Counted from the first letter of the stretch, positions 3,977 to 10,467 are shown. The stretch: DNA of 64,000 nucleotides from a candidate division WOR-3 bacterium (GCA_965649295.1 CBFGKH010000011.1:1-64000), one strand, 5' to 3'. A program made the numbers and translations. The notes: generated from the sequence alone by a model not told the origin.

Positions 3977-4717
3977 GTGAGGTTCGTGCTCGAGCTGCTC
4001 GACTACCTCGGCTTCGCAGTTCGCAGTCTGACCGGTTCGTGGGACCTGAACCGGTCCTGGCCACGGCTAAGTGAGCAACTGCTACGGCACGGAGCTGGTG
4101 CCTTGCCGGTAACGGCGCTGGCTGCAGCTTTCATTGGCTTGACGGTTGCAGTGCAGACCAACTATCAGCTAGTGGGTGTCGTCCCGAAGTTCTTTGTGGG
4201 GATGGGGGTCGGCAGGATGGTGCTTATTGAGTTTGCGCCGGTTTTTGCAGCATTCATAGTGGCTGGTCGGTCTGCCTCGGCGATGGCCGCTGAGCTGGGG
4301 GCGATGCGGGTTTCAGAGCAGGTTGATGCTCTGGAGGTGATGGGCATTGACGCGCACCGTTATCTCTGTCAGCCACGGATTCTGGCGACGGCGTTGGGCC
4401 TGCCAATTCTTGTGGTCGTGACTGAGGTGATTGCGTTAGGCACGGCACTAGTTATTTCGAGCCGGTGGCTGGGCGTGCCTGAGCAAACCTTTATGTATGG
4501 TTTGACTAGGTTCTTTCTTGCCAAGGACTTTTTCGGTGGCCTGGCCAAGGCAGTATTGTTCGGGTTCATTATTGGCATCAATGGCTGCTATCAGGGTTTT
4601 CATGTGACGGGTGGGTCCGAGGCAGTGGGCAGGGCCACAACCAAGGCGGTTGTGACATCAGCGTTGATGATTTTGGCGACCGATTTCCTGGTAGCGGTTC
4701 TCTTTTTCTCAGCATGA
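3977..4717 (+). CDS. mlaE: MlaE-family ABC transporter permease
   Basis: Motifs 'GRSASAMAAELGAMRVSEQVDALEVMG' and 'GGSEAVGRATTKAVV'. Confidence 0.92.
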   Translation: MRFVLELLDYLGFAVRSLTGSWDLNRSWPRLSEQLLRHGAGALPVTALAAAFIGLTVAVQTNYQLVGVVPKFFVGMGVGRMVLIEFAPVFAAFIVAGRSASAMAAELGAMRVSEQVDALEVMGIDAHRYLCQPRILATALGLPILVVVTEVIALGTALVISSRWLGVPEQTFMYGLTRFFLAKDFFGGLAKAVLFGFIIGINGCYQGFHVTGGSEAVGRATTKAVVTSALMILATDFLVAVLFFSA

Positions 4718-5406
4718 TTCGCGTTGATGGCATCAGCAAACGGTTCGGTCAAACTGTCGTGCTTGAGGATGTCAGTTTGACAGTGCCGGATGGCAGTCTG
4801 GTCGTGATTCTGGGGCCGTCAGGCATCGGCAAGACCGTGTTACTGCGAATAATGGCCGGACTCTTGCCGCCGGACAAAGGGCAGGTGCTCTATGATGGTC
4901 GGCCGATGCACTGGGGGATTTTCGCTGACAATCGGAAAGTGATTGGCGGGCTTGGTTATGTGTTTCAGGGCGGGGCGTTACTCGATTCAATGACAGTAGC
5001 TCAAAATGTTGCTCTGCCGCTGGAAGAGACATTGCACCTAGGTAAGAGCGAGGTCCGGCAACGGGTGACAGCAGCGCTTGCTCTTGTTGGGATGGAAGGG
5101 TGCGCAGAGTTGTACCCCAAGGCACTTTCAGGCGGAATGATGCGACTCGTAGCGATTGCCAGAGCTGTCGTGACCGAGCCGCGGTATCTGTTCTACGACG
5201 AGCCGACTACCGGTCTTGACCCGGCATTGCGCGAGAGAATATTGGGGCTGATATTGAAGTTGAAACAGCACAGGACGCAACTGGTGGTAACGCACGACCT
5301 TGACGCTGCGCAGCGTCTTGGCGACGAGATGTATCTGTTGCGGCGTGCCAGGCTCGTAGCCGCTAGTGGAATCTGTAAGGAGGATTATGAACCGGCGCTT
5401 ACGTGA
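4714..5406 (+). CDS. mlaF: MlaF-family ABC transporter ATP-binding protein
   Basis: Walker A GPSGIGKT, signature LSGGM, Walker B YDEPTTGLDP; overlaps the mlaE stop. Confidence 0.9.
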   Translation: MIRVDGISKRFGQTVVLEDVSLTVPDGSLVVILGPSGIGKTVLLRIMAGLLPPDKGQVLYDGRPMHWGIFADNRKVIGGLGYVFQGGALLDSMTVAQNVALPLEETLHLGKSEVRQRVTAALALVGMEGCAELYPKALSGGMMRLVAIARAVVTEPRYLFYDEPTTGLDPALRERILGLILKLKQHRTQLVVTHDLDAAQRLGDEMYLLRRARLVAASGICKEDYEPALT

Positions 5407-6136
5407 TTCGCTGGTTGGCCTGTTCCTGCTGGCCGGAGTTGCTCTGGCGGTATGGGCGTTCTTCTGGTTCTCAGGTCGGATTGAACGTGACCGACATCGA
5501 GAGGTGACTGTCCATTTTCCGAGTGTCTCTGGGCTTAGGGTCGGTGACGCGGTCGAAGTGCTTGGCATCCAGAAGGGTAGAGTCAGTGCCTTGGAGCTTG
5601 GTGACGGCAGAGTGAAAGCGACGTTGCAGATCAAAGCTGATGTCAGACTAACAGAGGATACGAGATTCGCTGTCCGTTCGATGAGCTATCTGGGCAGCGA
5701 CCGTTACTTGCTGGTTACGCCCGGCACCGGGCCGACAGCTACGACCACTGAGTTTGTCGGCACGAACGAGGCGCTGGATTTGGAGGAGACGTTCTTGAGA
5801 CTTGACCGCGTGCTGGCAACCCTTGACCCGCGCGAGCTGGCCGATGAGTTGCGGCGGACGCGAGACGAGTTGCTCAAGATACTTACAACCGGACTGGCTG
5901 GTTTGAGTTCTGACTTCGCAGTATCGGCTGGGCACATTGAGAATATATCGGCCCATGTGGATACGGTGGCGGCGCTGTTGAGCCCAAGCTCGCCGGCCGG
6001 CAAAGCGCTGCAGGCACCTGAGCTATACGATGAGTTGCGCAAGACCAATAGCGACCTGCAGGCGCTGATTGCTGACATCAGAGCTAATCCTGAGCGATAT
6101 CTGAAACTGCGCTTCAGCCTGTTTGGTGGGAAATAG
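5387..6136 (+). CDS. mlaD: MlaD/MCE family protein
   Basis: N-terminal TM helix, MCE motif 'SVSGLRVGDAVEVLGIQKGRV', C-terminal 'LIADIRANPERY'; SD AGGAGG before ATG 5387. Confidence 0.88.
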   Translation: MNRRLRDSLVGLFLLAGVALAVWAFFWFSGRIERDRHREVTVHFPSVSGLRVGDAVEVLGIQKGRVSALELGDGRVKATLQIKADVRLTEDTRFAVRSMSYLGSDRYLLVTPGTGPTATTTEFVGTNEALDLEETFLRLDRVLATLDPRELADELRRTRDELLKILTTGLAGLSSDFAVSAGHIENISAHVDTVAALLSPSSPAGKALQAPELYDELRKTNSDLQALIADIRANPERYLKLRFSLFGGK

Positions 6137-6145
6137 CCCATAAGC

Positions 6146-6173
6146 GCAGTCCCAGCAGAAATGCTGGGACTGC
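6146..6173. terminator. Hairpin between convergent genes (probable bidirectional terminator)
   Basis: GCAGTCCCAGCA-GAAA-TGCTGGGACTGC, a 12-bp perfect stem. Confidence 0.7.
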
Positions 6174-6187
6174 AGCGTTAGGACAGA

Positions 6188-6862
6188 CTACTTTCCGGAT
6201 TTCGTCTTAGGGCTGAGAGGCGAGAGTTGGGCGTACCGGGCGGAGACCTCCGCCGCGAGGTAGAGCCCTCAACATGCGCTCGTGCCAGAACAGTGGGCGA
6301 TGAGCTGAACGCGGAGCCGCCTGACTTTGGCTGGGTTCAATCCCTTCAGGTTCGTGGTCAGTTCCTCTGAGAGATTGAATGAGTAGTCGGCGTAGGTGTT
6401 GGGTTTGGCCGCGCGAATGTAATGGGCGGTCGAACTACTGTTCCAGCCGGTAGTTGGCGCGGTGTGGCCGATGGTCGTAGTGCCTAGTGGTTTGCCGACA
6501 GAGTCGAGGTAGGTCAGCACGATTGCTGCTGTTGAACGATACCGCAAGTCAGTGGTGCGGGCGTCGAACTTGGCCCGGGTCGAGAAGACGAGGTCGGTGG
6601 TTGTCAGGTTGACTTCTTGGGTTAGCGTTCGGTGCCCACACATCTCTTTGTTCAGCCGGACGCCACCGTCTTTGATGATTTCGATTTTGCCCCAGCCAAC
6701 GAAGTCCTCGGATGTTGTGGTCCAGGCAGGGGCGAGGCTAGTCGCAAAGCGGCTGTTGAGTAGGGAGTCGGTGGTGACGGCCGGTGTGGCGGCAGGTGGG
6801 GCAGCGGAAGCTAACACTAGCAGTAGTGAAATAAGCAGCGACATTCTCAGTAACGATTGCAT
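6188..6862 (-). CDS. Secreted jelly-roll (CBM-like) protein, probable selenoprotein (UGA at 6269-6271 read as Sec, 224 aa)
   Basis: Signal peptide present. The track ORF ends at ...HCSGTSAC-UGA, but the frame continues GLYLAAEVSARYAQLSPLSPKTKSGK-TAG (6188). A SECIS-like hairpin lies 14 nt after the UGA. Confidence 0.72.
6239..6254 (-). promoter_or_regulatory. Candidate bacterial SECIS element
   Basis: mRNA reads GGCGGA-GGUC-UCCGCC. The apical AGGUCU is identical to that of the E. coli fdhF SECIS, and the GGU starts 20 nt after the UGA. Confidence 0.65.
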
Positions 6863-6944
6863 AAGAAATGCTATGGGTCAGCGGCTACCCGGTCAAGCCG
6901 ACAACAGTGTTTGACAGCAGCAACTTGCTTAGTAGATTCTGACC

Positions 6945-8249: not shown

Positions 8250-8319
8250 CCGGTTTGACGGCTGGACGGGCCGGGTCTAGAATCTAGGGCAAGTGCTATT
8301 CCTTCCTAAGGAGCAGAAT

Positions 8320-10467
8320 GTGAGCAATCTATGTTTAGCTCTGCTGGTGGCTGTGGTTGCGGCCAGTGCCATGCCGATTCCTGAGGCCGGTGTGATGCCG
8401 GCGAATGCCGTGCCTTTTGCCGATGTCGAACGGGTTGCACTGAATCGGGCTAGGCGAGAGTTTCCAGACATGCTACCGGGAACGGTTGTGCCGTATGTTG
8501 ATGAGAACGGGCAGACCGTGGCCTATATGTTTCACTTTGTAGTCCCGGGCAAGACGATGGATGACTACGAGGCCGTCGCCGATGACGTGCTGGCTGGCAG
8601 GGCGACACTCGGTCCCGATACAGACCTCACTCGCTGGACTTCGCCTTATGCCCACGTGCTGGTGTCGGCACGTTATGACCGACCGCCAGTTATCAGGTTC
8701 GGGTATGGTGCTTCTGAGTTCTATGCTATCGGTCGGCAGGGGCTCGCGCGGGCACAAGCCGAATTGGGTCCCGGTGTTCGACTCTCGCGCATCTATTTTG
8801 TCTATCCGGTTACCTATCTTGAGTATGCTGATGATGCAGGGAGACAGATTGTTTTCGCGCAGCACTTCGAGCGTAGTTGGTCGTCCCGGACTGAGTTTGA
8901 GCGGTATGTGGCTGCCGGTATCAGAGCAATCGCAACTGAGCGTGGTGAAGAGGGTAATCTGGTCGCGTATCATGCGCCGGCCTGGGCGCGTGAGCTGGCT
9001 GGCGAGTATGGCTCGGATGTAGCGGTCTTTGTGCCGCAGGTGAATCGGGCACCGTTCTATGACTGGAGCTATGGCTGCACGCCGACAGCAGCAGCGATGG
9101 TGATGGGTTACATTGATAGGACTCAGGACTTCGGCCGACTTGTTGACTGGTTCTGGATGAGGCGTGACACTGCCGAACGGGAGTGGGACCATCAGGTCCC
9201 CAATGTTCAGCGGGAGTGTGCTATCGCCATGCATACGGACACGATTTCCGGCGGCACTTCGACAAACAACATCTCTTCAGGACTGCGAACGGTTGCGGCG
9301 GATAACGGCTACACTTGGTACGTCCTGCACGCAGACGGTGCGCTCTGGAACAATTACTGCTGGGATACGATCATGATGGAGATTGATGCTGGCCATGCAT
9401 TTGTCTGGTCAGCGACATGGGAGATTCATTCACTGGCTTGTTTCGGCTACCGTACAGATGACCAGTTTGTCTATGTGCACAATACTTGGTGGACTCCGGC
9501 TGAATGGTGGAATCATGCGCCTTCGAGTCCGAACTGGGCGCACGTCGGCTCTCCCTGGCCAACCGGTGGCGATCCGCACAAGGTTGAGATGGTCTATCCG
9601 CGGGGCGATACGCTCTACAACTCAACCGGCGCCGGCGAGCGACTTTTTGTTGGCGATACGGTGGTTGTCCGTTGGGACAATGGCGGGCTGCCGGCTGACT
9701 ACGTGGCCATTGATAGGTCAACGAATGCTGGGGTGACGTGGACCGAGATGGTTTCCAGCACACCGGACAACGGTGAGTATCACTGGTACCTCGACGGGTC
9801 GTATTATACCTGCGACTCGGTTCGGCTCCGGCTGAGACAATACGTGGGTTCGACGTTGGTGTCAGGGGATGGGTCATTCGGCAGCTTCCGGATTCAGCGC
9901 GAAGCACCAGCACCGACGCCACTGGCTCCGCCGGACGGGCTGCCAGTCTGGAACCCACCGGTGGTGCTGATTGTTGATTCGACCAACCGACGCATTGACA
10001 GTATCGAGTTCAAGGTGATGCTGGGTGTTGATACCATCTGGCGTCAGGTTGGTGTTGCGCCGACCTGTTCCTTGCCTGACACGCTGTTTCAGCGCAATCG
10101 TATCTACAAGTGGATTGTGCGGGGACACAACCAGTACGGCTGGGGTAACTGGGGTGCGCCGCGGACGTTTCGCATCATGTTCAGTGCGATCGCTGAATCG
10201 CTGGCAGAGCAAGCCCGATCGAGTTCACCAAAGACTACACACCACTCGCGAAGAGCTGGCGGTCTTTCTCTATCGCTGCCGGTCAGCGCTGGTCGGATGC
10301 TTTTCGTCTATGACGCGGCTGGCAAGCTGGTGGCCGAGGTACCGGTGCGAGCGGGACTCGCGTTCTGGGACCTTCGTGATAGCCGCGGCTTGCTGGCCGA
10401 AGCCGGACTCTATTTCGCCCGAGTTGATTCGACCGGACCGGTACGGAAGTTTGTGCTGGTCGAGTAG
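8320..10467 (+). CDS. Secreted papain-fold cysteine peptidase (C10/C39-like) with C-terminal secretion-tail domain
   Basis: Signal peptide; Cys 'YGCTPTAAAMVMGY', His 'IHSLACFGY', Asn 'VHNTW'; tail 'VYDAAGKLV...WDLRDSRG...GLYFAR'. GTG 8320 follows an AGGAG SD. Confidence 0.7.
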   Translation: MSNLCLALLVAVVAASAMPIPEAGVMPANAVPFADVERVALNRARREFPDMLPGTVVPYVDENGQTVAYMFHFVVPGKTMDDYEAVADDVLAGRATLGPDTDLTRWTSPYAHVLVSARYDRPPVIRFGYGASEFYAIGRQGLARAQAELGPGVRLSRIYFVYPVTYLEYADDAGRQIVFAQHFERSWSSRTEFERYVAAGIRAIATERGEEGNLVAYHAPAWARELAGEYGSDVAVFVPQVNRAPFYDWSYGCTPTAAAMVMGYIDRTQDFGRLVDWFWMRRDTAEREWDHQVPNVQRECAIAMHTDTISGGTSTNNISSGLRTVAADNGYTWYVLHADGALWNNYCWDTIMMEIDAGHAFVWSATWEIHSLACFGYRTDDQFVYVHNTWWTPAEWWNHAPSSPNWAHVGSPWPTGGDPHKVEMVYPRGDTLYNSTGAGERLFVGDTVVVRWDNGGLPADYVAIDRSTNAGVTWTEMVSSTPDNGEYHWYLDGSYYTCDSVRLRLRQYVGSTLVSGDGSFGSFRIQREAPAPTPLAPPDGLPVWNPPVVLIVDSTNRRIDSIEFKVMLGVDTIWRQVGVAPTCSLPDTLFQRNRIYKWIVRGHNQYGWGNWGAPRTFRIMFSAIAESLAEQARSSSPKTTHHSRRAGGLSLSLPVSAGRMLFVYDAAGKLVAEVPVRAGLAFWDLRDSRGLLAEAGLYFARVDSTGPVRKFVLVE

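Follow-up and report, generated by a model that had tools for sequence, protein, structure and literature searches.

Introduction

In the E. coli K-12 fdhF record, the selenocysteine insertion sequence (SECIS) element lies within the open reading frame (ORF) directly 3' of the UGA codon and reads GCA-GGUC-UGC, with the apical loop 18 nt past the UGA; an unpaired U in its stem is important for SelB binding. In mammalian thioredoxin reductase (TrxR), selenocysteine (Sec) is part of a C-terminal Gly-Cys-Sec-Gly redox centre. Carbohydrate-binding modules (CBMs) of the CBM_4_9 type are jelly rolls that typically open with an NGDFE..GW motif and close with an ADD[IV]SL strand. Selenoproteins predicted to act outside the cytoplasm include, in the sections of a 2026 review considered here, the DUF1573 "UGC" proteins, an FCYXU-type TonB-dependent receptor, an MtrB/PioB-type outer-membrane protein, and DsbA/DsbG-like proteins (PMC13188914). 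The gene described in this study bears a likeness to each of these systems. It occupies positions 6191..6862 on the minus strand of a 64,000-nt stretch of DNA from a candidate division WOR-3 bacterium (GCA_965649295.1, CBFGKH010000011.1:1-64000), the whole of which is referred to as the window, and it very probably encodes a 224-residue exported selenoprotein in which UGA198 is read as Sec by the standard bacterial route. The conserved UGA and downstream frame, a covarying hairpin, the presence of the Sec machinery, the occurrence of Cys homologues, a distribution restricted to SelA-bearing genomes, and the predicted fold together point to this decoding. Within a large paralogous family from uncultured bacteria, the window protein represents the short form, with a single domain.

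The gene begins with an ATG at 6862. A 197-codon ORF (6269..6862, minus strand) ends in ...CSGTSAC-TGA, and the TGA (6269..6271) is followed by 26 further open codons, GLYLAAEVSARYAQLSPLSPKTKSGK (6191..6268), up to a TAG stop codon at 6190-6188. Cysteine codons are located at 6638..6640 (Cys75), 6290..6292 (Cys191), and 6272..6274 (Cys197, immediately before Sec198), of which Cys75 is invariant in the ortholog group (K-x-M-C-G) and is matched by Cys in 17 of the 80 sequences of the family alignment (A2). The initial annotation of the window had described the stop after Cys197, the open continuation as far as the TAG at 6188, the three cysteines, and a GGCGGA-GGUC-UCCGCC hairpin beginning 14 nt past the UGA with its GGU 20 nt past it. 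All of these were recovered on re-reading of the sequence, and the interpretation placed on them, a 224-residue protein with UGA as Sec, is supported by the comparative data presented below.

Conservation of the In-Frame UGA and the Downstream Frame

The whole genomes of 60 relatives and of the source organism (G000, 2.28 Mb in 19 contigs) were searched with the read-through protein, and matches were found in 53 of these 61 genomes, most rows having exactly one TGA inside the match. Eighty places were fetched (20 plus 60, of which 20 were picked largely from rows lacking a TGA), with several tens of rows left unfetched. A 204-position profile was then built from 20 read-through domains and used in a six-frame scan with TGA read through, which yielded 88 distinct domain instances; one of these was partial at a locus edge, leaving 87 informative instances. 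Almost every profile match extended to the model's last positions (201-204 of 204), and an in-frame TGA was present in the loop before the last strand in 84 of the 87 informative domains. In the three domains that lack TGA, its place is taken by Cys (L089), by Tyr (L085), or, in C3:200171-202201 of G000, by a diverged loop, and the rows first listed as stop-free were those in which the match had merely ended before the loop. In one of the 84, the distant member L082 (G060:C8), which may no longer be decoded as Sec, the TGA is placed within an insert of 12 residues, 14 codons ahead of the A-E-V motif of the last strand, and a degenerate hairpin with a GUG-type apex follows 41 nt past the TGA. 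In 121 phylum-sampled genomes, a profile search gave 61 match rows, 59 of them with exactly one TGA; the other two were the non-Sec paralog and a partial match.

The peptide encoded after the UGA is also conserved, as GL[YW]LxAEVSARYVKL in the ortholog group and as ..AKVFADDISL, ..ARVLADDVSL, or ..AEVSADDISL in paralogs. These findings bear directly on the possibility that the TGA is a true stop, with the protein ending at Cys197 and the frame beyond it arising by chance or being left by a recent nonsense mutation. Gene callers do end the protein there; all four close homologues in the protein database stop at the equivalent of Cys197, 120 of 153 public proteins examined end at this column, and genes of this genome commonly terminate with TGA. 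Against this, the TGA and the following peptide are kept in 84 of 87 domains that share only 25-45% identity, in long paralogs up to 1,478 in-frame codons follow and lead to a type IX secretion system (T9SS) tail, and a protein ending at Cys197 would lack the last strand of its predicted jelly roll. A true stop at this position is therefore extremely improbable.

Substitutions at the Sec column are rare and include the usual stand-in for Sec, since Cys occupies it in P0008, P0012 (the same protein as L089), and P0078. An Ala form (P0026) keeps the flanking Cys residues, and P0039 and P0070 likewise have neither Cys nor Sec. The comparison suggested in the initial annotation, of homologues at position 198 and in the strand beyond it, thus gave TGA, rarely Cys, at the same position and a conserved downstream strand. 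When the window protein (P0001) was searched alone against the genome contigs, no relative was found; the long-form alignment (A5) matched relatives labelled Stahlbacteria, TA06, Latescibacterota, Cloacimonadota, and Eisenbacteria. With the table-11 ORF as query, the closest ESM Atlas clusters are unnamed or CBM-like, and the closest of all consists mostly of WOR-3 members.

The SECIS-Like Hairpin

The SECIS-like hairpin of the window gene (6239..6254, minus strand) is located within the coding sequence, 14-29 nt past the UGA, and is formed by the codons of A-A-E-V-S-A, with GGCGGA at 6254-6249, the GGUC loop at 6248-6245, and UCCGCC at 6244-6239. In the 84 Sec instances, a 6-bp stem carries the loop GGUC (79), AGUU (3), GGUU (1), or GGUG (1), and the distance from the UGA to the start of the loop is 17 nt in 33 instances, 20 nt in 46 (the window gene among them), 23 nt in 4, and 41 nt in 1. 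Like the fdhF element, the hairpin lies in the ORF directly 3' of the UGA and has an A-GGUC-U apex at similar spacing (18 nt in fdhF versus 17, 20, or 23 nt here). The likeness to fdhF drawn in the initial annotation is confirmed by the E. coli K-12 record, including the A-U closing pair; the apex is thus the same as that of the classical SECIS. Unlike that of fdhF, the present stem is an uninterrupted 6-bp helix, and no counterpart was seen to the unpaired stem U of fdhF (U17, as read).

Conservation of the hairpin, including covariation, was found in the comparative data, as the initial annotation had proposed to check. In an alignment of 81 sequences (A4), standard pairs occur in 98.0% of cells, compared with 85.6% in shuffles, none of 500 of which reached as high a value; with slid partners, only 20.7-60.6% of cells are paired. 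Changes on both sides of a pair were found in 68 cells versus 17.6 in shuffles. Both partners of the third pair are synonymous third codon positions, and 83 of the 84 instances have a Watson-Crick pair there (G-C 66, A-U 12, C-G 4, U-A 1). Across genomes that differ widely in base composition, the Val codon of the loop is GUC in 80 of the 84 (all GGUC loops and one other). The residues flanking this Val also change in pairs that preserve base pairing, namely E-S (39), K-F (28), R-L (14), and Q-C (1), corresponding to GA:UC, AA:UU, AG:CU, and CA:UG, respectively. In the proposed mechanism, the GGUC hairpin would recruit SelB with Sec-tRNA(Sec), and after Sec insertion translation would run on through the last β-strand of the jelly roll.

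Sec Machinery, Genetic Code, and Phyletic Distribution

All four genes of the Sec pathway that the initial annotation had proposed to look for, selA, selB, selC, and selD, are present in the source genome. The tRNA-Sec scores 72.9 bits and is called SeC by ARAGORN, with anticodon tca; SelA scores 500 bits and the SelB wing domain (wing 3) 62 bits, the C-terminal wing domains of SelB lying on C1 around 356370-356504. There are two selD genes (C1:355394-356504 and C1:318451-319377), one of them directly beside selB, and because each contains one in-frame TGA, SelD is itself a selenoprotein in this organism. Among 1,149 stop-to-stop frames with 300 codons or more, 430 (37%) are closed by TGA, so TGA is an ordinary stop in this genome and a reassigned code is not the explanation. 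When the genome was scanned for a TGA with a GGUC hairpin after it, 92 candidates were returned; only four of them, all members of this family, are flanked by convincing long frames. A radical-SAM gene (C1, 281901-283061) was also considered as a selenoprotein candidate and was rejected, since its TGA is most plausibly the stop codon that closes the frame upstream.

Another alternative is that the UGA is read through as an amino acid other than Sec, either by reassignment (to Trp or Gly) or by near-cognate suppression. One homologue, P0073, has a Trp near this position, which would fit such a reading and is possibly a gene call made under another code. The frequent use of TGA as a stop in G000, the occurrence of a single TGA per domain, in the same loop and always with the hairpin after it, the presence of Cys at the same column in homologues, and the confinement of the domain to SelA genomes in the phylum sample all speak against it, and non-Sec readthrough is very improbable. 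Among the 121 phylum-sampled genomes, SelA was found in 37 and the domain in 26, all of which fall within the 37, whereas none of the 84 genomes without SelA has the domain. By taxonomic family, the domain occurs in 8 of 12 SelA families and in none of the SelA-free families. SelA was found in 57 of the 61 genomes of the close-relative set, and G013 and G039, which have no SelA, SelB, or true SelD, have no member of the domain family. Given this restriction to SelA-bearing lineages and the scarcity of Cys forms, the family seems to depend on Sec.

Several observations weigh against decoding of UGA198 as Sec. The organisms are uncultured, and Sec198 is read here from genes alone. Pairs 4 and 5 of the stem are forced by GCN Ala codons and are therefore uninformative. 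The 67-nt fold of the window gene has a free energy of -21.8 kcal/mol versus -21.6 kcal/mol for shuffles (z = -0.07), with the hairpin present in the minimum free energy structure; taken singly, this sequence thus folds no better than shuffles do, and support beyond chance comes only from the comparative data. No Rfam SECIS match was found in 6100-6400. The behaviour of the hairpin in non-Sec forms is mixed, in that it is lost in the G000 copy at C3:200171-202201 and weak in L085; the Cys form L089 keeps a 5-bp stem with an AGUC loop, so loss of the hairpin together with Sec is not a clean control. G022 (92% complete) has family members and no SelA match, with tRNA-Sec, SelB, and two TGA-containing selD genes present, and G058 (76% complete) has members while SelA, SelB, and SelD are all below the cut-off and its best tRNA-Sec match reaches 45 bits against a threshold of 47. 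The phyletic counts are to be read as a pattern and not as a statistic, because the genomes are related and not independent.

Predicted Fold and Relation to Carbohydrate-Binding Modules

A structure predicted by AlphaFold from an 80-sequence alignment (predicted local distance difference test score, pLDDT, 93.2; predicted template modelling score, pTM, 0.85) consists of a signal-like helix at residues 2-18 and a β-sandwich. The segment after the UGA forms a strand (E202-215), with pLDDT values of 98 and 92 for the blocks 201-210 and 211-220, respectively. The jelly roll with a closing strand beyond the UGA that had been anticipated in the initial annotation is therefore what the model predicts. 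The closest structural matches are all CBM-like jelly rolls and comprise the C-terminal domain of a phage tailspike (5w6h_A; Z 13.2, root-mean-square deviation 2.4, 136 residues aligned) and several CBMs, namely a porphyran-binding CBM (8xmz_B, Z 12.1), a CBM70 (4d0q_A, Z 12.0), and a CBM4 (1gui_A, Z 9.9); the CBM matches span Z 9.7-12.1 overall, and Foldseek agrees. The structural alignments extend to residues 216-221, and the strand after the UGA lies inside the aligned CBM core.

The domain is thus a predicted CBM_4_9-like jelly roll. It shares with CBM_4_9/CenC domains the opening NGDFE..GW motif and the closing ..ADD[IV]SL strand, and ESM Atlas neighbours are named CBM-cenC and CBM_4_9. 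In contrast to these likenesses, the sequence match is weak or absent: the window protein has no match to PF02018 (CBM_4_9), nine of the 80 members match it weakly (best E 3.2e-4), and one PDB chain matches by sequence (E 0.0012). No CBM among the search matches is described as a selenoprotein. The domain may accordingly be called sugar-binding-like, with carbohydrate binding a putative function.

Possible Role of the Selenocysteine Residue

The Sec residue would be located in the loop before the last strand, usually as (G)C-U-G or C-U-x-G-H-C; the latter occurs in one subfamily, and G-C-U-G and A-C-U-G are frequent. Other subfamilies have Cys at columns equivalent to residues 75, 108, 138, or 202 instead of at -1, and the Cys that would partner Sec thus differs between subfamilies. 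A first guess, offered tentatively, is that Sec serves in extracytoplasmic metal or metalloid binding, where it would form a binding or redox site for a soft metal, a metalloid, or a chalcogen. This guess is placed first, and TrxR-like redox chemistry second, because the CU families in Table 1 of the review, in the part considered here, are mostly metal or organometal proteins such as HgcA, SaoL, MbdU, and the CopZ type (PMC13188914).

A catalytic redox centre, in which vicinal Cys and Sec would form a selenenylsulfide acting on extracytoplasmic substrates, would account for the frequency of the A-C-U-G and G-C-U-G motifs, for the Cys at -1 in 36 of the 80 sequences of alignment A2, and for the terminal Cys of 88 of the 120 public proteins that end at the column. 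Most known selenoproteins are also redox enzymes according to section 7 of the review (PMC13188914). As in TrxR, a vicinal Cys-Sec pair is followed by Gly, and many members read exactly G-C-U-G. However, the motif lies here in a loop of a β-sandwich and is followed by a further strand, whereas in TrxR it forms a flexible C-terminal tail; no FAD/NADPH site, other cofactor site, or oxidoreductase domain is attached; and many members lack the adjacent Cys, as in YSG-U-GT and NGT-U-GGG. Together with the metal-protein bias of the CU families noted above, these differences make a redox centre somewhat unlikely. Alternatively, Sec might form a structural Se-S cross-link, which would be more resistant to reduction than a disulfide in anoxic, sulfidic habitats. 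At least one other Cys is found in 77 of 79 Sec-column sequences (A2), at positions that vary by subfamily, and the proteins are predicted from their sequences to be extracytoplasmic, as such a role would entail. Sec is costly, however, no structural selenoprotein appears in the part of the review table considered here (PMC13188914), and the same fold family includes the homologues with neither Cys nor Sec (Ala in P0026; P0039; P0070). A mainly structural role is therefore improbable.

Long Paralogs and Family Size

In the long paralogs, another 200-1,478 open codons follow the UGA, with FlgD_ig or Por_Secre_tail (T9SS sorting) domains at the end. These long members are surface proteins of ~620-1,670 residues with the Sec domain at the N-terminus. 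The source genome contains four Sec copies (the window gene on C11 and further copies on C2, C3, and C9) and one non-Sec copy. Its long Sec paralogs are located at C2:194854-196818 (L133, 655 codons), C3:248660-253666 (L134, 1669 codons), and C9:82012-84015 (L136, 648 codons); the 1669-codon paralog contains Ig/fn3-like and Kelch-like repeats and a T9SS tail, and the middle region shared by the long G000 paralogs (..ICSNGW..WDDL..) has no Pfam match. The non-Sec copy (L135, C3:200171-202201) has the same domain with neither Sec nor Cys in the loop and no hairpin, and may represent a natural loss of Sec. When four long-paralog copies from relatives were scanned for Por_Secre_tail, L033 (28.2 bits) and L036 (37.0 bits) scored above the Pfam cut-off of 27, and L034 (20.9 bits) and L037 (20.5 bits) scored below it; one G000 copy is just below (24.5 bits). 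The T9SS sorting domain is absent from the window protein, which ends 26 residues past Sec.

Up to eight copies occur per genome. Tandem pairs of members, 1-2 kb apart, were observed in G047:C6, G022:C44, G050:C37, G058:C202, G059:C11, G019:C22, and G021:C44, and a member lies ~4-9 kb from selA in G050:C37, G030:C14, G034:C133, and G052:C59. A search of 1.84 billion cluster representatives returned 537 at E <= 0.001, 275 at E <= 1e-10, and 121 at E <= 1e-30. The 153 public proteins examined comprise 149 of the 150 representatives listed and the four close homologues, one being shared. Besides the 120 that end at the Sec column, 25 run past it, only some of them with Cys there, and 8 are fragments.

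Gene Context in the Window

The window protein would be exported, judging by its hydrophobic N-terminal helix and by an ASA-type site identified by eye. The signal-peptide-like N-terminus comprises residues 1-20, MQSLLRMSLLISLLLVLASA (6803..6862, minus strand), overlaps the helix predicted at residues 2-18, and has a counterpart in a similar hydrophobic leader at the start of all homologues. A sigma-70-like promoter match (6868-6896, minus strand; TTGACC, 17-nt spacer, TAGCAT) ends 5 nt short of the start codon at 6862; with a match so near the ATG, the transcript could be leaderless, translation could start at Met7 as in the homologues P0002 and P0003, or the match could be due to chance.

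On the other side, a GC-rich 12-bp hairpin, GCAGUCCCAGCA-UUUC-UGCUGGGACUGC (6146..6173, read from 6173 to 6146), begins 14 nt past the TAG and lies between the selenoprotein gene and the end (6136) of the convergent mlaD. The initial annotation had taken this hairpin for a terminator; the hairpin and its position stand, and the terminator role is not supported, as a consensus terminator scan gave 0 sites there because the hairpin has no T tract. A mir-1990 match to the same intergenic hairpin in the Rfam scan of 6100-6400 was dismissed as a spurious chance match. The convergent genes form an mlaE/ABC-ATPase/mlaD operon (window 3977-6136, plus strand; Pfam MlaE, ABC_tran, MlaD), and 9 of the 18 related loci that were searched have mlaD next to the orthologue, which is read as positional orthology rather than as a functional link. 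Elsewhere in the window, a 724-codon ORF (8293-10467, plus strand) has a signal-like N-terminus, no Pfam match at E <= 1e-5, and a C-terminus that appears T9SS-tail-like by eye.

Novelty and Biological Implications

No Pfam or NCBIfam (release 20, June 2026) model covers the domain. The initial annotation had found no resemblance to a classical selenoprotein family, and indeed none of the Pfam or NCBIfam selenoprotein models matches; the same is true of the models of the extracytoplasmic selenoproteins named in the review. The domain is not among the 119 selenoprotein families of Table 1 of the review, in the part considered here, in which new candidates from groundwater metagenome-assembled genomes are credited to Deng et al. 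2026 (Cell Rep) (PMC13188914). It was likewise not met in the deep-Sep passages considered (PMC12013277) or in a term search of BSepDB (PMC13326102). Literature searches found no description of such a family, and a prior listing is possible. The family shares with the extracytoplasmic selenoproteins of the review that its Sec proteins would leave the cytoplasm, whereas those proteins have other folds and motifs and, in the sections considered, none is CBM-like or T9SS cargo (PMC13188914). It thus apparently constitutes a large, unlisted family of exported or T9SS-secreted CBM-like selenoproteins.

Because public sets end them at the UGA, hundreds of proteins annotated as hypotheticals of ~190 residues would really be longer, and some of the mis-ended proteins would be surface proteins of ~620-1,670 residues. 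The combination of a UGA, a 17-23-nt spacer, and a GCNNN-GGUC-NNNGC hairpin could serve as an annotation handle with which to re-annotate these genomes. The family also offers a case in which RNA would shape protein, the SECIS stem constraining residue pairs of the last strand. More speculatively, it could be the first surface-displayed selenoprotein family, with Sec in an exposed CBM-like loop that captures or transforms soft metals, metalloids, or chalcogens (sulfur, selenium); in that event, the site may be periplasmic or carried on T9SS-secreted surface proteins of anaerobic uncultured bacteria. Since Sec has scarcely been reported from either this fold or this compartment, the family would be a target for asking what role selenium plays outside the cytoplasm of anaerobes.

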